Positions 1 to 9,293 of a DNA stretch of 21,370 bases are shown one piece after another; positions within the stretch are counted from its first letter, which is position 1; the number at the start of each line of letters is the position of its first letter. A program made the position numbers and the translations under genes. The DNA comes from Microcoleaceae cyanobacterium (lineage in GTDB: Bacteria; Cyanobacteriota; Cyanobacteriia; Cyanobacteriales; Microcoleaceae). The notes below the pieces were generated by a model. The model did not search any database, was not told the origin of the DNA, and saw nothing but the letters and a program-made list of their open reading frames with translations. The stretch spans positions 1-21,370 of the forward strand of contig JBOFUV010000092.1 in assembly GCA_051652765.1 (NCBI GenBank), written 5' to 3'.

Positions 1-191
1 TTGCTATTGGCGGATCTTTGGCGGGTAAAAGCAAAAAGCTCAGAGCTGAAAACTTAAAGAGGCTTGATTTCTTCAGAGAAAAAGCTGAATCCATGACAAA
101 GGAAGAATTGGATCAAGCGATTGCTGAATTTGATAGAGAGTTTGATGGTGAAATCCCAAAATCCCAAATCCTTATCCGCATCAAAAAATAA
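1..191 (+). CDS. 3' end of a hypothetical protein truncated by the window edge (...AIGGSLAGKSKKLRAENLKRLDFFREKAESMTKEELDQAIAEFDREFDGEIPKSQILIRIKK*)
   Basis: Manual translation of frame 3 is open from base 3 to TAA at 189-191, with a charged, helical-looking composition. Not in the ORF track. No family recognised. Confidence 0.65.
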   Translation, partial: AIGGSLAGKSKKLRAENLKRLDFFREKAESMTKEELDQAIAEFDREFDGEIPKSQILIRIKK

Positions 192-332
192 CCGCCTGAT
201 GAATTCACCCTGTCGGTGAATCGCCCCTAGCAGGATCGGCTAGTTGGTGGAGCTGATGTGGCTCAGAAATCCCACGTTCCTGGGATTGCGGAGAAGGGGT
301 CGCTCCCCCATTCGCCTACTCTTCGGAGTAGC

Positions 333-517
333 GAGAGAGAAGAGATTGAGGGCTTTCATAGGGAAATAAGCACCCCCAGTAATGGGCGCGGGCTTCAATA
401 TTTTCAAAAGCTCCTCTTGACTCTCTCACCCTTGCCTACTCTTACAGAGTGAATTAAGCTCCCCGTAATGGTTGTGGGCTTTCAACGGATTCAGAAGATC
501 TATAGGCATTTAAAGGG
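333..517 (+). ncRNA. Putative bridge RNA core: target-binding hairpin (333-427) and donor-binding hairpin (429-517); transcript may begin further upstream (about 195)
   Basis: Hairpin 1: GAGAGAG(333-339)/CTCTCTC(421-427), AAGAG(340-344)/CTCTT(414-418), GGGCTTT(350-356)/AAAGCTC(407-413), AAGC(368-371)/GCTT(392-395), apical CCCA-GTAA-TGGG. Hairpin 2: CCCTT(429-433)/AAGGG(513-517), GCCTA(434-438)/TAGGC(503-507), TCTT(440-443)/AAGA(495-498), AAGCTC(456-461)/GGGCTT(476-481), apical CCCGTAATGG. Each has two ~11-nt internal-loop strands, and two of the four match the junction at 1848-1861. Confidence 0.8.
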
Positions 518-538
518 CAATAGCGGTGATCCGGTATT

Positions 539-543
539 GAGGA
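539..543 (+). promoter_or_regulatory. Shine-Dalgarno-like GAGGA for the recombinase ATG at 551
   Basis: GAGGA lies 7 nt before ATG 551, favouring 551 over the TTG at 545. Confidence 0.6.
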
Positions 544-550
544 ATTGAAT

Positions 551-1795
551 ATGTCCATTATTGGGCTTGACGTTGGGCGCAACCACGCCGTAGCTGCTGC
601 ATTGGAAGAACTTCCTAGCAACATTCAGCGCTACTATTCCCAGCATCGGCGGGAGTTCGTGCGGGTAAATTGCGATAAAGAAGGTTTTGATCTGTTGTGG
701 GCGATGCAACCGGAAAAGGTTGTAATGGAACCGACTGGAGGATGGTATTCACGTCTGACGGCTGAGAGATGCGAAGAGCGAGGGATTGAGGTGCTCTGGG
801 TAGGTCATGCAGACCTGAAGGCTCAGCGGCAAAGTTACGGGTTTAAAAACAAGCGAGATCCTGAGGATGCACTGTGTTTAGCGGCCTGCTATTTTGACAA
901 CCGCTTTATCGACAAGCATGGACAAAAGCGCTTCATTCAATTCAATCAAGACATCCGGTTGCTTCAGGATTGGTTTTATGAGTCTGAGCAACTGGATAAG
1001 GTTGGCAACGGCCTAGTCAACCAGATTCGTCAGCGACTCTGTTACGAGTTCCCAGAGTGGGCTCAACATGGCGCGGGTGATAGCAGTATTAATGACAAAT
1101 TGGGCTGTCACCCTTTTTGGGCAGCGCTTGCAGGGAGCCACTCATATCATCAATTCAAAAAAGCCTACAGTACAACTGTAGGTGCAGGCTTGAGCGATTA
1201 TACCAAGCTTCATGCAGCACAATTGGTTGAGTTACAGCGACGCACCCAACCCCTACTGGAGAAGATGGAGGAGTTCTTATCTAAGCCAGAGTTTGAGCCT
1301 TATTTAAAAGCCATGGCTCCCTTTAAATTCGGGCTGAAGAATAAAGCTTACTTGGTTTGTAAGTTGTACCCGTTTGATAAGTTTCTGGTGGATGGCAGAC
1401 CATGGATTGAGCACCATTCCAACAGCAAGGGGAAAAGAAGCAAGCACGACCACTCGCAGCGGCAATTGCAAGCTTACTTAGGGTTGAGCTACACCATGGA
1501 AAAATCTGGAGATTCAGGTCAGCTCAATAAGAAATTCCATGGTTCTAAGGTTTGCCGTTCAAGCCTCTACATGTGGGCTAAAAACAAGTTTGACCGGGAA
1601 CGAGGGAAACACATGGACTCAGAACAGGGGCAAGCACTATGGCAGAAGCATAGGTCACAGAGACGCTTGCAAGATAATGGTAATGGTCAGTTTAAGGCGG
1701 GGGAAGATGCGATCGGGGGGGACGATGCAATTATTAGACTGCTATTTAGGACGACTTACGAACTTTACAAAAATCTGAAGCAAGAGTTTTTATGA
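551..1795 (+). CDS. IS110-family recombinase/transposase (N-terminal DEDD RuvC-fold domain, C-terminal Tnp domain with catalytic Ser), 414 aa
   Basis: Motifs IIGLDVG (D7), VVMEPTGGW (E60), KNKRDPEDALCLA (D103, D106) and QLQAYLGLSYTMEKSG (S319) correspond to the IS110 DEDD tetrad and the AY.GL....SG motif. Frame intact. Confidence 0.9.
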   Translation: MSIIGLDVGRNHAVAAALEELPSNIQRYYSQHRREFVRVNCDKEGFDLLWAMQPEKVVMEPTGGWYSRLTAERCEERGIEVLWVGHADLKAQRQSYGFKNKRDPEDALCLAACYFDNRFIDKHGQKRFIQFNQDIRLLQDWFYESEQLDKVGNGLVNQIRQRLCYEFPEWAQHGAGDSSINDKLGCHPFWAALAGSHSYHQFKKAYSTTVGAGLSDYTKLHAAQLVELQRRTQPLLEKMEEFLSKPEFEPYLKAMAPFKFGLKNKAYLVCKLYPFDKFLVDGRPWIEHHSNSKGKRSKHDHSQRQLQAYLGLSYTMEKSGDSGQLNKKFHGSKVCRSSLYMWAKNKFDRERGKHMDSEQGQALWQKHRSQRRLQDNGNGQFKAGEDAIGGDDAIIRLLFRTTYELYKNLKQEFL

Positions 1796-1847
1796 GGTTC
1801 AAAGTAAAATTCTGGGGCTTCTCTTTTTTTGAGGTACGGAATATCCT

Positions 1848-1861
1848 AGAGTGAAAATATT
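1848..1861 (+). other. Recombination junction (left-donor / core / right-target) AGAGT-GAA-AATATT
   Basis: 1848-1855 AGAGTGAA is identical to 446-453. 1852-1861 TGAAAATATT is the exact reverse complement of 397-406. Confidence 0.8.
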
Positions 1862-1984
1862 ACTGACTGAAGCTTAACTTACAGCACTTTGCCCAAAGTA
1901 TGGAACATCTAGCCGCTCAAGTCCTTCTTCAAAAGGGAATACAGGGAGAATTTCTTTGTATTACAACCCAACGAAGCCTGCTGT

Positions 1985-2028
1985 AAGTGCTATTAAGGTG
2001 CTATTAAAGTCCTATTGAAGTTCTGTTG
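1985..2028 (+). repeat. Four degenerate 11-bp tandem repeats upstream of ruvA
   Basis: AAGTGCTATTA / AGGTGCTATTA / AAGTCCTATTG / AAGTTCTGTTG. Confidence 0.75.
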
Positions 2029-2046
2029 GAGTCATAGACAGGTAGA

Positions 2047-2679
2047 ATGATCGGATATCTTAAGGGAAAAATTACAGAAATTCAGAAAATTAGCAACACT
2101 AAAGTTATTCTGATTTTAGAGGCGAATCATATTGGTTATGAGATTCAGATTGTTCCCCGTTTAATTCAGGATCTCCCTGAATTTGGAGAGAGTATTCAAA
2201 TTTTTACTCACCTCCAAGTGCGAGAAGATCAAATGGTATTGTATGGTTTTTCGAGTACCGCCGAACGCGATTTGTTTCGGCAATTAACGAGTGTTAGTGG
2301 TATCGGAACTCAACTCTCAATTGCTTTATTAGACACATTGGGTTTGCAAAATTTAGTTCAAGCTATTGTCAGTGGAAATACCCGCGTTCTCTCGAAGACT
2401 CCCGGCGTTGGGGTGAAAACCGCCGAACGAATTTCTCTTGAACTGAAGACCAAACTGTCTGAATGGCGACAACAGGCGGGATTACCCAAGACTTCAACAA
2501 CACAATTAACCCCAGAAATTCAGGAAGACATTGAGATGACACTTTTGGCTTTAGGTTACACCGGATCAGAAGTGATGCAAGCTTTACAAGCGATCAGCCA
2601 AAACAAACAGTTGACGCAAAATACGCCAACTGAAGAATGGATTAGAAGCGCAATTAGTTGGTTGGGAGAAAACGTTTAA
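2047..2679 (+). CDS. ruvA: Holliday junction branch migration protein RuvA
   Basis: MIGYLKG start, HIGYEI, HLQVREDQMVLYGF (acidic pin), HhH motifs LTSVSGIG and KTPGVGVKTAERISLELK, C-terminal LLALGY; 210 aa. Confidence 0.97.
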   Translation: MIGYLKGKITEIQKISNTKVILILEANHIGYEIQIVPRLIQDLPEFGESIQIFTHLQVREDQMVLYGFSSTAERDLFRQLTSVSGIGTQLSIALLDTLGLQNLVQAIVSGNTRVLSKTPGVGVKTAERISLELKTKLSEWRQQAGLPKTSTTQLTPEIQEDIEMTLLALGYTGSEVMQALQAISQNKQLTQNTPTEEWIRSAISWLGENV

Positions 2680-5600
2680 ACGGTTGCTCCTGAAGTAAAG
2701 TCTACTTCTGTAATTGAACTGAGTGAAACCTGATTCAAGGTTACCAAGAGTTCAGTCCCCACTTGAATCACAACACTCTCTCCTCGTTGTTCTAGAGTCA
2801 AGTCAAGGAAAGATAGTCCGCCCAAAAGCTCTAGAACATCCTCTCCATCTGTAAAGTCCACAATCACATCGGCTCCGGTCTCTACAACTAGAACAAACTG
2901 ATCCAACCCTGCTCCCCCAGCCAGGGTATCGTTCCCTAAGTCTCCGAGGAGTCGATCGTTACCCTCCCCTCCCACTAAGGTATCGTTATCTTTCCCACCA
3001 AACAATGTATCGTTGCCAGTATCTCCGCAAAGCAGATCTTGTCCTTCGTTGCCACTGATCAAGTCATTGCCTGCACCGCCACAGAGAGAATCTTGGGAAC
3101 CCGAACTGCCTACGGGTTGATCACTGCCAATGTCTCCAAACAATGTGTCGTTGCCAGCATCTCCACAAAGTTCATCATTGCCGCGATCGCCTAGTAACTG
3201 ATCATCCCCCGCTTCTCCAGATAACAAGTCATCTTCTTGGCCCCCTCGGATTAGATCGTTTCCTTCCCCGCCTTTTAAGGTATCGGTGTCGCGGTTGCCC
3301 TGGATAAAATCATTGCCTGAACCCCCCAGCAGAATATCTTGACCGACAGGAACTTGATCGGAATCGTTAGTATCGCCAAACAGGGTGTCGTCTCCCAGAT
3401 CCCCAAACAGGGTGTCATTGCCCAGTTCGCCTCGGAGTTCATCGTTGTCTTTACCCCCATAACCGAAGTCGTTCCCTTGACCTGCATACAGGCGATCGCT
3501 CCCAATACTGCCCTGCATAACATCATTACCCTGGTTCCCGAAGAGAGTATCCTGACTCATCTCACCGCCGACGGAACTTTCTTGACCTGGGTCGCCGACT
3601 AACGTGTCGTTATCCAAGTTGCCAAACACAATGTCATTGCCGTCATTGCCGTAGACTAAATCTTCGCCCCTGCCCCCGTAGAGTGTATCGTTGTCTGCGC
3701 CGCCATCCAAGCTATCGTTATTTTCATTGCCCCCGAGGAAATCATTGCCATCTCCCCCAGTTAGCAGATCTGTTCCAGCCAAATCCGGACTGGATAAGCG
3801 ATTTGTGCCGCCAAACAAAGTATCGTTCCCGGCTTCTCCAACCAAAGAATCAACACCTAAGGAACCAAACAGGACATCATTTGCCGTTCCGCCATTCCCG
3901 AAGTCGTTCCCATCTCCACCATCCAGTAAATCACTGCCGGAATTGCCCAACACATTATCGTTGCCGCCTCCAGCCAACAGGATATCATTGCCGCCAAATC
4001 CCAGAACAGCTTCGTCAGCGTCAGAACCGACCAAGAAGTCATTGGCTTCTGTACCGGGGAGGGTCACTGCCACACTGTTGCCTGCTAAGGGCTCCAGGGG
4101 AAAAGGCAACGTCGGCAGCGTAATTCCGGTAATGGTCATAGCACTGCAAAAGTTACACAGTCCCTCAAACTCCCCCCTGTCCTCATCTTCCAGAACTAAC
4201 CGAACGGTGGCAACATTAGAAACGGCTCCTTCGTTGTCGGTGGCTTGATAGGTGAAAGTAAACTCGGCTTCAGAGGGATTAGAGTCAGGACTAAACCTCA
4301 ATTGATCGGCTTGATCCAGAGTTAAGTCCTGCACCTGACTTAAATCCGTAATTTCCAACCCATCCAGGAACAGTTCTCCTTCAGATGGGGTTAACAGACT
4401 AATCAAATCAAAACTCACAACTTCACCGTCTGGATCAGTTGCAGTTAAGGCCGGGACATCAACGCCATCACTGTCTCTGGGAATATCTTCTAAGAGTAAA
4501 TCTTCGGCAATCGGAGCCAGATTGTTGTCAATCGGAGGCGATTGTTGTTGCGTGACATTCAGAATGATATCCACTGAATTGGAGGAATCCCCGTCATTGT
4601 CAATGGCAAAGTAGCCCAACAACAGCTCTCCTACAAAGTTCGGATTGGGGCTGAAAGACAGGGTACTGGCTTGCTCCCCAGACAAGTTCTGAACTTGGCT
4701 GAGATCGGTAACCGCCACTCCCGCTAAAAATAACGTGCCTTCATCCACCTCTGGCAGCGTGATCAGGGTAAAGCCCTCGATTGTTCCATCTGGGTCAGTG
4801 GCAATTAACGGCGGAATTTCAACTCGATTCACCCCATTGGTAAACTGCGGAACAGTCACGGACTCGGCAATGGGCGGAGTATTGGCGACCAAAGGGATAG
4901 TGACCGTGCCGGGTTCAACTGAAGTCTCGTCATCGTTATCGACGGCAAGAAATTGGAACGTCACCTCACCGACAAAATCTCGATCAGGAATAAATTCAAG
5001 TTGTTCAGCGTCCTCAAAATCGATCAAGTCGTCAACTTGAATGGGCTGGCCATTCAGCACCAGTTGTCCATTCAGGGCTAGTTCGGTAATGATAAAGCCC
5101 TCTACGGTTCCATCCTCATCACTTCCGGTTAACGCTGGGAGATCAACGGTGTGGGTATTTCTGACTTCATCCAGGGTAATATCATCAGCAATCGGAGGTA
5201 AATTTCCCTGAAACACAGGAATGGTGTAAGTCCCAGGAGTTAAATCAAAAGCTCCCTGATTGTCAATGGCGGCATAGGTGAAAACAGCCTCTCCGACAAA
5301 GTCCCGATTGGGCTGAAAGGTTAACTGATCCGCTTGATCAATTAAAACCGGTTCATTTAACTGAACGGGTTCCCCGGCCAGAAAGAGTTCCCCAGCTAAA
5401 TCTGGAATCAGGGATTGAATTTCAAAGCGAACCACTTCCCCATCAACATCACTCCCACTTAAAGCTGGAATCGAAACAGGTTGAGCCGTTCGATTCGAAA
5501 CATCGGGGGCGGTAATGTCGTCGGTTTCTGGGGGAATATTAGCTGGAATCGGCGAAACAATCGGAATTCTGAAGGTTCCGGGCAAGCTTTCTGCATTGTC

Positions 5601-8600
5601 ATCATCCGTCGCCACATAGCGGAAATTATCCGTGCCAACAAAATCCCGGTTGGGAGAATAGAGCAATTCATCGGCTTGATCCAAGGGAATCAGCAAGGCT
5701 GTGTCTGTAATGGGCTGATTTCCCAGAAACAGTTGACCATTGTCGGGCAAGTCAACTACCCGGAAATTCACTAGGACACCGTCTTCATCTATTCCTTGTA
5801 AAGTACTTAGGGGAGCTTGGGTTTGATTAACATCAATCTCTGAATTGAAAATATCTTCAACGATTGGAGGTCGATTGATCACCGGAATATTAAAACCCGC
5901 TGTGTTTGAAACGGCGTTTTCATTGTCAATCGCGACATAGTTAAACCCTGTCAGCCCTTTAAAGCTTGGGGTTGAAGTGAAAGTCAAACTGTCGGCTAGG
6001 GAGATCGGAATAAGTTGATTGGGATCAATCAAAGCTTCGCCGTTTAGGGAGATCTGACCTGCCAAGGGAAAATTCACAATCCGGAAGCCAACGACCTCTC
6101 CATCAGAGTCACTCCCAATCAGGGAATTGAGATCTACCTGAATCGAATTGGAGAGAATGTCAGGGTTATTAATCGTCGTGGCAACTGGGGGCTGATTGGG
6201 GTTAGTGGGAATGGCAATCAGGGCTGGATTTAAGGACTGTTCGTTGTCATCATCTGTGGCCGTATAGGAAAACGTGGCAGTGCCTGTGAAGTTAGGATTG
6301 GGTAAGAAGGTCAGTTGACGGCTCTGTGCTTCTGTCAACTGAGCCACCTGACCTAACCCAGTAACAGGTTGCCCCGCCAAGAGTAATTGACCATTACTAG
6401 ACAGTCGATCAATGGTGAAAAACTCAACCGTACCATCTTCATCCTCGCCAATCAGCGGCGGAATCACCACAGGAACCGCTGGATTTCTCACGGGAGGCTC
6501 AACCGTAATATTTTCAACAGTGGGGCGCTGATTGAAAATGCCTCCGGTCACAATCGGAATCGTCACCACCCCAGTGTTGAGCGATCGCAACCCTTCATTG
6601 TCGGTCACGATGTATTCAAAGAAGTCCGCACCGATGAAGTCGCTATCTGGTGTAAAGGTCAATTGAGTCGCCTGTTCGATCTCAACCGCTTGTAATTGGT
6701 CAATATCTGTAATTGGTTGACCCTCAAAAAACAATCGACCCTCTGAGGGAAGTTGCTTCAAGCTAAATTGCTCGACGGTTCCGTCTACATCGACTCCGTT
6801 CAGCAGGGGAATCACAGGAACCTGACTTGCTTGATTGTTCACCGGATCGAGGAAAATCTTATCCGCAACCGGGGGAAAATTGGCAATGCTGGGAATGATA
6901 TAGGTCGCTGGGGTTGGATCTTCCCCCCCTTCGTTGTCGATGGCTGCGAACTGAAAGAGCGCAAAGTTAAATGGGGGCTCAGGACTAGGAGTAAACGTCA
7001 AGTCCCCAGCTCGATCCGCAGGAACCACTGCGTTCAGTTCCAGGGGTGTACCATCCAAGAACAGGGTTCCCTGAGTTGGCAGTTGCGTAATTCTAAACCC
7101 AGTCACAAAGCCATCAGCATCACTTCCCTGCAAGGGGAGCAAAGGAACTTGAACATCGGTAGGACGAATGAAGTTCCCAACGACATCCTCTGTTTCCGGG
7201 AGTTCATTCGGAATATCCGTAATCGCAATGGTTGCGATCGCCAGATCGCTGTTAAAGCCATCCTCCCTAGCTTTATCTCGGACAATCACCTCAACGGTTC
7301 TTGGAGTAGTCGTTGGGTTAATCGAGGCGTTATTATAGACGATGCCATCGATAATGGCTTCATAGTCCTCCAAACTAGCGCTGCCATTAATTTCTATGGT
7401 GGTGCCATCCGCATTGACCGTCAGTCCCAATTGATCCACCAAGGTCTGGGCTGCTTCATTAAAGCCGATGCTTTCCAGAGAGCCATCCAGCGGATTCGTG
7501 AGACGAATCGTTGCGACCTCCAGAGTGTCATCATCTGCATCTTCGATTAACGATTGATTGGCAATGGCAACGGGATCTTGACCTTCGGTAAATCCGGTCT
7601 CAAAATTAACTCCAGGGGTAGTTGTCCGATCCAAATCTAGGACTGGAGGCTCCTGCAAGGTTTGAATCCGAACACTGCGGAGTTCGTGAAAGTTAGTGCC
7701 AGTTCCTGTAGACCCCGCAAACCCAAACTTAAACGTCTCCGGGAAATCCCCATTATCGGCTTTAACATCTAGATTGTTAATTAGCAGTTCATTGGGCTCA
7801 ATGACCTGATCGAAATCTAAATCCAGGGAAACCGAGAGCAACCCATCCTGAGTCAGCAGGATTTCAACAGTTCTCCGACTCTCCTGATTACGCGCATTAA
7901 CGTCAGTATCAATCCCAATCGGGAGTACTCCGGTAGTCGTAATAAAATCATAGCCGTCAGCTTCGCTGCCCCGAATCGTAATCGCATCAGGGGTTGAACC
8001 CGGCCCCCCTATTCGGCCTTCGCTCGCTCTGGGATTGGCAAAGTTGCCAAATGCATCAAAGCCAATGCCAAGATAACCGCCTTCCAGTCCCGGTTTACCC
8101 TGATCAATTCTGGGAGCATAGCCCAAGGAACCCCCAAATCCTCCACTGGTGGTGGGAGATGCGTCACCATCAATCAAGAAAAAACTAATCCCATCGGCTC
8201 GTTTGTCCCCGGTTCCTCCATAGGCGAAGAACTCGAACTCTAACTTCAATCCAGCATCGGAGCGAACAGGAAAATCGTAAATGACAAATCCAGCTTGCTC
8301 ACTTGCATTTGAGGTCAGTCGTAATGCTCCGGCTCCCTCTAAGTCCGGAGTGAACCCCGCAGGAACTCCTGGAATTCCTCCCTCTTGGGGGGCTCGATCA
8401 GGTCTGGCCGTGAGGAAGGGATTTTCTAGGTCGCTTGGAGTATCGGAGGTTGTGCCCGTGCCAAAGATCCATCTCAGTTGATCATCAAAGGGGGGTTGAA
8501 AAGAAAGGTCAGCGTTGACAAAAGTTTCATCAACCAGCAGAATCAGAACAGAGGTGTAAGCCCTTAGAACCTCTGAGCGAAAGGGTAAGATCTGATTCAC

Positions 8601-9086
8601 TTCACCTGTTGTGACTTCAAGACTCCAATTTCCTCCCAGAGATGAACTGCCCGTTAAGGTCTGAGAGGCAGCAATATTGGCTCCTGTTAACTGAGCCAGA
8701 CCATCAACGAAATTGCGACCGTGCTCTCCTGCGGCAACACAGCATCCATAGAGTAAAATTTTTCCAGTCTGACCGAGGGCGATTTTCCACTGTTGGAATT
8801 GCTCTTTATAGGTTTCTAGGGTTTCTAAACTGAGTTCGACATTCCCGAGGCGTAGTCTTCCCGAAGATCCGTGGGACAAAATATGTAGCGATTCAATGTC
8901 CTGGTATTTCCCTAGGGCTTGGGTGATCTGAGTCACGCCATCTTGTTCGGAGCTGAGAAGAACAACACTGGCTTGAGGATCAATACCCTGAACTAAACTC
9001 TGATAGTCAGAAATGGATGAATCAATAACAACAACAGTCCGATCAACTTCAAACACTCTAGTATTCATACCTGAATTTACTGACAT
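2676..9086 (-). CDS. Large secreted/surface protein: DUF4347 + L-type (legume) lectin-like domain + nine Ig/cadherin-like repeats + RTX (haemolysin-type) Ca-binding repeats
   Basis: N-terminal LHILSHGSSG...ILLYGCCVA...GGNWSLE (DUF4347); ADGISFFLID...GGSLGYA...GYLGIGFDAFGNF...FKFGFAGSTG (lectin-like); many GGxGxDxL nonapeptides; C-terminal GADVIVDFTDGEDVL typical of T1SS substrates. Start uncertain (GTG 9095, ATG 9086 or ATG 9068). Confidence 0.88.
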   Translation of the reverse strand: MSVNSGMNTRVFEVDRTVVVIDSSISDYQSLVQGIDPQASVVLLSSEQDGVTQITQALGKYQDIESLHILSHGSSGRLRLGNVELSLETLETYKEQFQQWKIALGQTGKILLYGCCVAAGEHGRNFVDGLAQLTGANIAASQTLTGSSSLGGNWSLEVTTGEVNQILPFRSEVLRAYTSVLILLVDETFVNADLSFQPPFDDQLRWIFGTGTTSDTPSDLENPFLTARPDRAPQEGGIPGVPAGFTPDLEGAGALRLTSNASEQAGFVIYDFPVRSDAGLKLEFEFFAYGGTGDKRADGISFFLIDGDASPTTSGGFGGSLGYAPRIDQGKPGLEGGYLGIGFDAFGNFANPRASEGRIGGPGSTPDAITIRGSEADGYDFITTTGVLPIGIDTDVNARNQESRRTVEILLTQDGLLSVSLDLDFDQVIEPNELLINNLDVKADNGDFPETFKFGFAGSTGTGTNFHELRSVRIQTLQEPPVLDLDRTTTPGVNFETGFTEGQDPVAIANQSLIEDADDDTLEVATIRLTNPLDGSLESIGFNEAAQTLVDQLGLTVNADGTTIEINGSASLEDYEAIIDGIVYNNASINPTTTPRTVEVIVRDKAREDGFNSDLAIATIAITDIPNELPETEDVVGNFIRPTDVQVPLLPLQGSDADGFVTGFRITQLPTQGTLFLDGTPLELNAVVPADRAGDLTFTPSPEPPFNFALFQFAAIDNEGGEDPTPATYIIPSIANFPPVADKIFLDPVNNQASQVPVIPLLNGVDVDGTVEQFSLKQLPSEGRLFFEGQPITDIDQLQAVEIEQATQLTFTPDSDFIGADFFEYIVTDNEGLRSLNTGVVTIPIVTGGIFNQRPTVENITVEPPVRNPAVPVVIPPLIGEDEDGTVEFFTIDRLSSNGQLLLAGQPVTGLGQVAQLTEAQSRQLTFLPNPNFTGTATFSYTATDDDNEQSLNPALIAIPTNPNQPPVATTINNPDILSNSIQVDLNSLIGSDSDGEVVGFRIVNFPLAGQISLNGEALIDPNQLIPISLADSLTFTSTPSFKGLTGFNYVAIDNENAVSNTAGFNIPVINRPPIVEDIFNSEIDVNQTQAPLSTLQGIDEDGVLVNFRVVDLPDNGQLFLGNQPITDTALLIPLDQADELLYSPNRDFVGTDNFRYVATDDDNAESLPGTFRIPIVSPIPANIPPETDDITAPDVSNRTAQPVSIPALSGSDVDGEVVRFEIQSLIPDLAGELFLAGEPVQLNEPVLIDQADQLTFQPNRDFVGEAVFTYAAIDNQGAFDLTPGTYTIPVFQGNLPPIADDITLDEVRNTHTVDLPALTGSDEDGTVEGFIITELALNGQLVLNGQPIQVDDLIDFEDAEQLEFIPDRDFVGEVTFQFLAVDNDDETSVEPGTVTIPLVANTPPIAESVTVPQFTNGVNRVEIPPLIATDPDGTIEGFTLITLPEVDEGTLFLAGVAVTDLSQVQNLSGEQASTLSFSPNPNFVGELLLGYFAIDNDGDSSNSVDIILNVTQQQSPPIDNNLAPIAEDLLLEDIPRDSDGVDVPALTATDPDGEVVSFDLISLLTPSEGELFLDGLEITDLSQVQDLTLDQADQLRFSPDSNPSEAEFTFTYQATDNEGAVSNVATVRLVLEDEDRGEFEGLCNFCSAMTITGITLPTLPFPLEPLAGNSVAVTLPGTEANDFLVGSDADEAVLGFGGNDILLAGGGNDNVLGNSGSDLLDGGDGNDFGNGGTANDVLFGSLGVDSLVGEAGNDTLFGGTNRLSSPDLAGTDLLTGGDGNDFLGGNENNDSLDGGADNDTLYGGRGEDLVYGNDGNDIVFGNLDNDTLVGDPGQESSVGGEMSQDTLFGNQGNDVMQGSIGSDRLYAGQGNDFGYGGKDNDELRGELGNDTLFGDLGDDTLFGDTNDSDQVPVGQDILLGGSGNDFIQGNRDTDTLKGGEGNDLIRGGQEDDLLSGEAGDDQLLGDRGNDELCGDAGNDTLFGDIGSDQPVGSSGSQDSLCGGAGNDLISGNEGQDLLCGDTGNDTLFGGKDNDTLVGGEGNDRLLGDLGNDTLAGGAGLDQFVLVVETGADVIVDFTDGEDVLELLGGLSFLDLTLEQRGESVVIQVGTELLVTLNQVSLSSITEVDFTSGATV
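4195..7208 (-). repeat. Nine tandem ~110-aa Ig/cadherin-like repeats within the DUF4347 protein
   Basis: Recurring NxPP...LxGxDxDGxVxxF...LTFxP...FxYxAxDN units starting NELP, NFPP, NQRP, NQPP, NRPP, NIPP, NLPP, NTPP, NLAP. Confidence 0.85.
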
Positions 9087-9293
9087 AGCCTGCACCTGTA
9101 CCTAATCAAAATGAGGGATCAAAGCACATAGGGGTCTTATACTTAAGCAGTTACATTTTATACGAAGTCAAAGCGTTTTAGGGAAATCGGCTATGGTCTT
9201 GATCAACTCAGACTTTGGAGAGACCGAACTATATCTTTGGTGATATATTGTATGTCAAGTTCTTGACCTACTGTGAAATATTACTGTATTTGA

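Follow-up and report, generated by a model that had tools for sequence, protein, structure and literature searches.

A bridge RNA and an IS110-family recombinase as the probable right end of a long insertion upstream of ruvA in a Microcoleaceae cyanobacterium

The DNA analysed here, hereafter the window, is a stretch of 21,370 nucleotides from a Microcoleaceae cyanobacterium (assembly GCA_051652765.1, genome G000 in our numbering) and forms the start of contig C92 (JBOFUV010000092.1); other C numbers denote contigs of the same genome, L numbers homologous loci and G numbers genomes. Near its left edge the window carries the gene of an IS110-family recombinase, preceded by an IS110-type bridge RNA and, further upstream, by a domain resembling a hammerhead ribozyme, and followed by ruvA (Table 1). 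We consider it likely, with a probability of about 80%, that the bridge RNA (288 to ~520) and the recombinase are the right-hand 1.7 kb of an insertion of about 17.3 kb, the other 15.4 kb of which would lie on contig C87.

Table 1. Features at the left edge of the window
Feature	Position	Strand	Details
Last cargo open reading frame (ORF), 3' part	3..191	+	62 aa in window; TAA stop 189-191 abuts the hammerhead-like domain
Hammerhead-ribozyme-like domain	192..291	+	Pattern scan, minimum-energy fold, compensatory changes among copies in the same genome
Bridge RNA 5' leader (predicted)	288..336	+	Small hairpins 296-299/305-308 and 313-333 (UUCG loop), from fold
Target-binding loop hairpin	337..427	+	Helices 1 and 2; left target guide 357-365, right target guide 397-404
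Donor-binding loop hairpin	429..517	+	Helices 3 and 4; left donor guide 446-453, right donor guide 484-491
IS110-family bridge recombinase, 414 aa	551..1795	+	Intact ORF, stop at 1795; family profiles, fold match
Element right end	1796..1855	+	Left donor arm AGAGTG 1848-1853, core AA (probable) 1854-1855
Right target arm AATATT	1856..1861	+	Host DNA; 6/6 to the reverse complement of 397-402
ruvA	2047-2679		Start 190 bp downstream of right target arm; Pfam

The protein encoded at 551-1795 is an IS110-family recombinase with an N-terminal RuvC-like DEDD domain and a C-terminal serine Tnp domain. It matches the NCBIfam model NF051857.1 (transpos_IS110_2) with 360.1 bits (cut-off 180) and Pfam Transposase_20 with 23.0 bits (cut-off 21.3), and reaches 26.9 bits with DEDD_Tnp_IS110, below the cut-off of 29. 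In an alignment of 22 sequences, D7, D103, D106 and the pair S319-G320 are invariant and E60 is nearly so (at least 90%). A single-sequence search of the PDB missed IS621; the profile of the 22-sequence alignment gave weak matches to ISCro4 and IS621, with the SG pair aligned to the ESG of ISCro4. For the AlphaFold2 model (predicted local distance difference test score 89.0), the ten best PDB matches are without exception chains of ISCro4 or IS621 (E ~1e-8, template modelling score 0.59-0.63 on the target); the structures of IS621 are 8wt6-8wt9.

An initial annotation, made from the sequence alone, had decoded the loops of the two hairpins as guides and found them again at the right junction of the element. 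Direct reading of the window gives the four loop strands where they had been placed, CATAGGGAAAT (357-367), CAATATTTTCA (396-406), CAGAGTGAATT (445-455) and CAACGGATTCA (483-493), as well as the junction string AGAGTGAAAATATT at 1848-1861. The element-side half of this string, AGAGTGAA (1848-1855), equals 446-453 in eight of eight positions, and its flank-side half, GAAAATATT, is the reverse complement of part of 396-406. Read as guides, the left target strand gives CAUAGGG followed by AA and the right target strand pairs with AA and AATATT; the left donor strand gives AGAGUG followed by AA, and the right donor strand would pair with AA and TC and then, with G487 bulged, with GTT. The triplet GAA occurs in all four guide strands and at both junctions, that is, at the right one and at the candidate left one on C87. 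A second copy in the same genome, on C116, is 75% identical, and its homology with the window stops exactly at ...AGAGTGAA (window position 1855). The leader at 288-336 is conserved in this copy, the hairpin-1 loop strands differ and the hairpin-2 strands are nearly unchanged, as expected if the target loop varies and the donor loop is conserved. Folding of 190-550 gives a z-score of -1.82, which is modest. The match between loops and junction exceeds chance, as comparison across the family shows.

Of 401 genomes sampled within the same order, 90 have homologues of the recombinase. When named records were scanned with the single recombinase protein as query there were no matches; a narrower alignment yielded 44 related loci, almost all of them cyanobacterial, from Microcoleaceae, Lyngbya, Capilliphycus, Xenococcus, Waterburya, Pseudanabaena, Crocosphaera and Chamaesiphon, among others. 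The upstream regions of 19 loci were aligned, and their loop strands align gap-free. In all 19 loci whose donor loop can be read, the 8-mer taken from the left-donor columns sits exactly at the right end of the element. The right-target columns in turn predict a right flank, and in 13 of 17 loci this agrees with the real one in 5 or 6 of its 6 positions; L031 and L056 were excluded from this count because a contig end truncates their target loop. The mean match is 4.53 of 6, against 1.93 in 272 mismatched locus pairs, and none of 10,000 permutations reached 4.53. Among the misses, the right flanks of L033 and L036 start with ACCCC, the left-end sequence of their subfamily; these joints are right-end-to-left-end joints (tandem or donor-type) within the chromosome, not ordinary targets.

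The helices of the RNA covary too. Over the four helices and 17 sequences 90.8% of the cells are paired (helix 1, 90.8%; helix 2, 89.7%; helix 3, 92.6%; helix 4, 90.2%) and ten pairs have changed on both sides, seven of them in helices 3 and 4; the covariation score is 0.329 against 0.136 in shuffled alignments, a value that none of 500 shuffles attained.

Empty sites complete the picture in relatives. For L032, the site is uninterrupted in sister genomes; in one of them it reads ACAGAGAAATGCT, identical to the target loop in 13 of 13 positions, in the context ...CTACAGAGAAATGCTAC.... For L055, the 814 bp to the left and the 776 bp to the right of the predicted junction are 12,811 nt apart in its own genome (G165), whereas in at least 20 of 39 congeners they abut each other without a gap; the empty sites TCCTGAGAAAATTAAA and TCCTGAGAAAATTAAG agree with the target loop in 16/16 and 15/16 positions, the prediction from the RNA being TCCTGAGAA followed by AATTAAA. 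Guide/junction covariation in 17-19 loci, helix covariation and empty sites together establish the hairpins as an IS110-type bridge RNA. They also bear out the layout that had been assumed for the window, with a 5' target-binding and a 3' donor-binding loop, left guides that read as the top strand, right guides that read as its reverse complement, and a right junction composed of left donor, core and right target. Relatives are discrete insertions of 10.7-14 kb. In genome G436 (C2:4499650-4510390) the very site at which G165 has the 12,811-nt L055 element is taken by another insert, of 10,739 nt. In G165 itself, where L032 lies at 2.47 Mb and L062/L078 at 5.14-5.15 Mb, the flanks of one target site are 2.7 Mb apart and inverted; they adjoin two related elements, one with a broken recombinase, and the arrangement looks like an inversion through recombination between elements.

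The left junction required a change in how the right donor guide is read. In L032 the junction is ACAGAGAA joined to ACCCCACG; a contiguous reading of the guide would give ACTCCCAC, and the difference points to a single bulged RNA base in the right donor guide. By the same rule G487 would be bulged in the window, and its predicted left end becomes TCGTT instead of TCCGTT. Thus the donor originally proposed, AGAGT-GAA-TCCGTT, keeps its left half, found 8/8 at the right end, and loses its right half. From the RNA alone we composed a left-junction 15-mer of nine left-target-guide bases plus the two and four bases flanking the bulge. With 0-1 mismatch, this prediction was found in five of seven complete-genome elements, 9.3-11.6 kb upstream of the recombinase, as against one match in 42 combinations with foreign patterns and none in the seven elements with the contiguous rule. 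A contiguous-guide junction had no convincing match in the window's genome either. Within the window's subclade, the 14-mer predicted for the element of G007 occurs exactly, 154 nt from a contig end, and the junction predicted for the C116 element occurs exactly on C150. The complete Capilliphycus salinus genome contains a counterpart of the prediction, GTTAGGGAATTATTA (13/15), on the correct strand and 13,144 nt upstream. There, as in the window's candidate, the sixth left-end base is A and not the predicted G, so that the guide seems to pair five bases (two, the bulge, then three). The crossover core, placed within GAA by the initial annotation, can be narrowed further: L037 and L059 have AAA in their left guides and TAA in their right guides, that is, A or T before an invariant AA, and their junctions fit only with AA. 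The core is thus probably the dinucleotide AA.

The window holds no left-target/core/right-donor junction 5' of 333. It begins with the same 99 bases as C84, C87 and C94, the mark of an assembly branch point, and in the assembly graph the window's start joins C87 or C94. C84 carries a second IS110 module, with a recombinase 27% identical to that of the window, its own bridge RNA, a related ribozyme-like domain and the same upstream ORF (the copy at the start of C84 is 91-97% identical to that at 3-191, which has at most a weak Pfam match to EF-hand_7). The C84 loops could be decoded as well: they predict the right flank in five of five positions and the left junction TTAGCAGAATCCCCA. This 15-mer occurs exactly in C94, 13,807 nt from the contig end and just past the end of the homology that the cargo of C94 shares with that of C87. 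As C94 has the exact junction of the C84 element, C94 probably goes with C84 and C87 with the window. C84 (1-2040) and C94 appear to make up a second element of about 15.7 kb. Further exact or one-mismatch copies of its left-junction 15-mer lie at C131 (-) 9218, C131 (+) 53428 and C134 (-) 29773; despite these copies, tblastn found no further recombinase gene. Isolated left ends or a target sequence present several times may account for them.

On C87, 15,547 nt from the contig end and just beyond the last cargo homology (15.3 kb), lies CATAGAGAATCGTTA, which agrees with the window's predicted left junction in 13 of 15 positions. One of the two differences is an A compatible with an rG:dT pair and the other is the unpaired sixth base; left arm and core match the target guide in eight of nine positions, and TCGTT matches the donor guide in all five paired positions. 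We regard it as fairly probable that this is the left junction of the window's element, about 17.3 kb from its right end. The target first proposed, ATAGG-GAA-AATATT, would then stand in its right arm, AATATT (6/6), and change in its left part, where CATAGAGAA is the best candidate and differs from ATAGGGAA at one position. On C87 the insertion would cut the last codons of a host ORF of 77 amino acids that has orthologues in both congeners; the C-terminal tails of its homologues are too variable to decide whether it is truncated. Also on C87, 154 nt outside the proposed left junction and within this small host ORF, stands an exact GAATCGTTG (core plus right-donor sequence), which may be a chance occurrence or a half-match site.

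The domain at 192-291, directly 5' of the bridge RNA, was overlooked in the initial annotation. It comprises stem I (192-195/288-291), the box CUGAUGA (196-202), three hairpins (203-221, 222-249 and 250-264), GAAA (266-269), stem III (269-274/281-286) and a UH site at T286 T287, with cleavage predicted after T287. A pattern scan for the order CCGC-CUGANGA, hairpin, GAAA with hairpin, UH and then GCGG found the motif immediately before the bridge RNA in 20 of the 37 loci scanned; on the opposite strand and inside the gene, none of the 37 had it. It lies 186-271 nt before the recombinase start, and the positive loci include recombinases only 30% identical to that of the window. In the alignment, stems II and III vary in sequence between loci and keep their complementarity; stem I, of only 4 bp, is invariant (CCGC/GCGG). 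Relatives have the canonical three-stem form with a normal stem II, whereas in the window, C116, C84 and the unrelated L053 two additional hairpins separate the CUGAUGA box from stem II. In the minimum-energy fold of 188-295, CCGC/GCGG closes the structure and the three hairpins and stem III form inside it; the folds of C116, C84 and L053 are alike, and the three copies in the window's own genome show compensatory changes. With open-stem-I hammerheads (closest Rfam model, RF03152) the domain shares the CUGAUGA ... GAAA ... UH core, stems I and III and the cleavage-site triplet; it differs in its short stem I, in scores below the Rfam thresholds and, in the window's form, in the two extra hairpins. 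Over window positions 1-2100 and the loci of 12 relatives, Rfam gave chance-level matches only. The window's variant is a candidate hammerhead ribozyme in which the core bases are kept and cleavage is predicted. In the window and several relatives an ORF on the same strand stops within a few bases of the motif, and no sigma-70-like site was seen in 1-2100. In L033 the start of the ribozyme is duplicated. A search of the accessible literature returned no paper that links hammerhead ribozymes with IS110 or bridge RNA.

These observations can be joined into a model of the locus. The 5' internal loop would specify the target CATAG(G/A)G-AA-AATATT and the 3' internal loop the element's own ends, ...AGAGTG-AA on the right and, with one bulged RNA base, TCGTT... 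on the left. The element would separate ruvA from the 3' end of the small host ORF, having inserted at a site predicted to read CATAG(A/G)GAA (with CATAGAGAA as the left target) joined to AATATTACTG. The bridge RNA, placed directly behind the last cargo ORF of the same strand and not at the left tip, may be made from a read-through transcript shared with the cargo, and the hammerhead-type domain may cut this transcript after U287, which would set the 5' end of the guide at G288.

Several observations weigh against this model or parts of it. The C87 junction has two mismatches in 15, for which we estimate a chance of about 3 in 100 over the 32 kb examined, and C87 is joined to C92 solely by the 99-mer that C94 and C84 share too. 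The search for an empty site upstream of ruvA, suggested by the initial annotation, failed in 40 relatives, which are about 70% identical and in which the intergenic DNA at this place is not conserved. G001 and G002 have ruvA and the small host ORF on separate contigs; tblastx of the DNA 5' of ruvA in these two genomes gave nothing in the window's genome, comparison of the C87 flank with the relatives' ruvA loci gave no matches in synteny, and an exact 25-nt stretch of the right flank occurred in none of the contigs in a metagenome scan. Among the complete-genome elements, two of the seven have no left junction within 40 kb, one of them explained by inversion, and the C150 match of the C116 element enters a tandem-repeat-rich gene that continues on C65, a poor fit to an element of 11-17 kb. 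As to the ribozyme, the window has three hairpins in place of stem II, unpaired A..A ends and an extra A before GAAA, and its domain has no Rfam match with E up to 10; the best match of L029, to RF03152 (RAGATH-1-hammerhead), covers all core bases and reaches 17.7 bits, the gathering score being 56.3, and the closest relatives outside the window's genome, L026 and L136, do not have the motif. Transcription, cleavage and recombination are all predictions from sequence.

Other explanations of the locus were considered. That the hairpins are a leader, attenuator or terminator of neighbouring genes and the junction matches coincidental would agree with a structured 5' region before an ORF and with the modest fold z-score; given that the loops covary with the junctions in 17-19 loci and that empty sites were predicted base for base, we attach practically no weight to it. 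A compact IS110 element of about 1.7 kb, with its left end inside the window just 5' of the hairpins, would resemble most IS110 elements described, which in the accessible parts of the reports measure 1.0-1.6 kb and carry the bridge RNA in their left end (Durrant 2024; Hu et al., 2026 preprint), and the homology of the C116 copy does begin at about 186. However, the homology start at 186-192 is the start of the conserved hammerhead motif and not an element end, the DNA 5' of 186 in C116, C87 and C94 encodes related, syntenic proteins, the window has no suitable junction on that side, and the relatives are insertions with measured sizes of 10.7-14 kb. We therefore hold a compact element to be very improbable, and the view of 333-1861 as a self-contained small insertion sequence is abandoned for a unit that would continue about 15.4 kb past the left edge of the window.

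The bridge RNA may also be read correctly and the C87 match be due to chance, with the true left end on C42 (ATAGGGAATCGTTC, 13/14), on C101 (ATAGGGAATCCCTTG, 14/15) or in unassembled DNA. The contig links are indeed ambiguous and the two matches exist, each within the number expected by chance in a 5-Mb genome. We set both contigs aside, without a comparison with the cargo, as neither has a graph link to the window, and the C42 flank has no similarity to the relatives' ruvA loci. C87, on the other hand, is one of only two possible upstream neighbours, its match lies at the edge of the cargo homology, and C94, the other neighbour, carries the exact junction of the other module; a left end elsewhere seems to us quite unlikely. 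A different doubt concerns activity: the module may be a fossil whose guides record the insertion of an element now immobile, with an RNA or ribozyme no longer made or active. The one left-arm guide mismatch, the non-canonical hammerhead and the lack of a promoter-like site could be taken in this sense, and L032 and L035 have mutations in the ribozyme core and left junctions missing or rearranged. The mismatch is nevertheless a G:T wobble of the kind that IS621 tolerates, according to the accessible part of its description (Durrant 2024, PMC11208160), the recombinase frame is intact with all catalytic residues kept, and three copies preserve the three-hairpin variant, with compensatory changes, while an unrelated lineage has it as well. 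Decay of this sort appears somewhat unlikely. The preferred reading thus remains that of a bridge RNA and recombinase at the right end of a ~17.3-kb insertion that continues on C87.

The cargo of this insertion would consist, in its C87 segment, of an endolysin-like Peptidase_C39_2 protein, a tyrosine recombinase of 207 amino acids, a protein that weakly matches minor-tail proteins (2.1e-5) and about 20 ORFs without family. The 12.8-kb element of L055 contains an M15 endolysin, an HTH_3 regulator, a tyrosine recombinase of 190 amino acids and unknowns. The cargo proteins of C87, C94 and C116 are related and syntenic. The tyrosine recombinase is the sole cargo protein to which NCBIfam gives a name; a cargo protein of 568 amino acids has only two homologues, and two cargo proteins had no information in the protein atlas. 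In L029, L030, L032, L033, L035-L037, L055, L057 and L059 the ribozyme is closely preceded by a short conserved ORF that bears the motif KPKY-x-IGDR; this ORF is sometimes present in two copies, has no known family and is missing from the window's element. No capsid or terminase gene was recognised in the cargo of the two annotated elements, and the IS110-family recombinase had no match among 50,697 phage records, so that "phage-like" is a description and not a finding. The IMG/VR contig of L120, classed as viral, carries a 37%-identical recombinase 1.7 kb from the contig end. It is tempting, although on balance doubtful, to see here a class of phage-like cyanobacterial elements of 11-17 kb that would use a bridge recombinase as integrase and a hammerhead to free its guide from the cargo transcript. 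Filamentous prophages of Neisseria (Nf, or MDA island) integrate via the IS110-family transposase pivNM/irg; they too are phage-sized elements with an enzyme of this family as integrase, and differ in host phylum and cargo. To our knowledge, neither a guide RNA nor a ribozyme has been described for them.

IS621 is the best described system of this kind, and the accessible part of its description states how the guides are to be read, that the right donor guide pairs discontinuously and that rG:dT pairs are tolerated (Durrant 2024, PMC11208160). As far as that account goes, the window agrees with IS621 in having an RNA with two internal loops 5' of a recombinase with DEDD and Tnp(Ser) domains, the target loop 5' and the donor loop 3', left guides that follow the top strand and right guides its complement, a core present in all four guides and a discontinuous right donor guide. 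In contrast to IS621, the window's protein is only 16-17% identical, the core would be AA and not CT, the right target arm measures 5-7 nt in the window's family, and a hammerhead-type domain lies 5' of the RNA. The window's element would also be about 17 kb long instead of ~1.3 kb, and its RNA would lie about 15.7 kb from the proposed left end (9-13 kb in relatives) and not at the left tip; at this distance, no promoter would be rebuilt at the junction as in IS621. ISCro4/IS622 (PDB 9t56; preprint 10.1101/2025.05.14.653916) is the best match by profile and fold, and the differences are the same as for IS621.

Large IS110 units have been reported by Hu et al. (bioRxiv 10.64898/2026.08.14.744561); according to the accessible text, loci reach up to ~100 kb, mobility of the whole unit is mostly below 20 kb, and the loci arise by stepwise accretion, mostly of plasmid-derived DNA with resistance genes. 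The elements studied here resemble these units in being far above 1.5 kb. They differ, on the same portion of that work, in sharing syntenic cargo within a genome or genus, in having the RNA at a fixed internal place and in the recurrence of endolysin-like and short tyrosine-recombinase genes in both annotated elements; the strings "cyanobacteri-" and "ribozyme" are absent from the accessible text of Hu et al. (10.64898/2026.08.14.744561). A 2026 genomic language model preprint, in its accessible part, treats bridge RNAs and a divergent hammerhead separately and derives element ends at most 1 kb from the gene. Pipelines that seek the ends within 1 kb of the recombinase, as far as they are described there, would discard the window's family.

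Bridge recombinases are in development as programmable tools for DNA insertion, and the window's clade widens their known range with a distant branch, 16-17% identical to IS621, that goes at NCBI simply by the name "IS110 family transposase". Its target and donor code is readable from sequence and was validated in relatives via empty sites and both junctions; it would use an AA core, probably, and a right donor guide with a defined bulge of one base. The natural units carry 9-15 kb of cargo, which bears on the length of DNA that such enzymes can move. A self-cleaving ribozyme directly 5' of the guide would offer a putative route to a guide independent of a promoter rebuilt at the junction. If the more tentative parts of the model are true, the locus would represent a natural ribozyme-processed guide RNA and an RNA-addressable module of lysogeny, or of a satellite.

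Two minor features lie to the right of the element. Positions 1876-1978, in the intergenic DNA 5' of ruvA, are 77-78% identical to stretches of C101 (38797-38901) and C1 and look like a small dispersed repeat. Directly 3' of ruvA, on the minus strand (2676-9095), an ORF of 2139 amino acids contains many tandem domains and C-terminal repeats of the GGxGxD type (RTX-like, calcium-binding).

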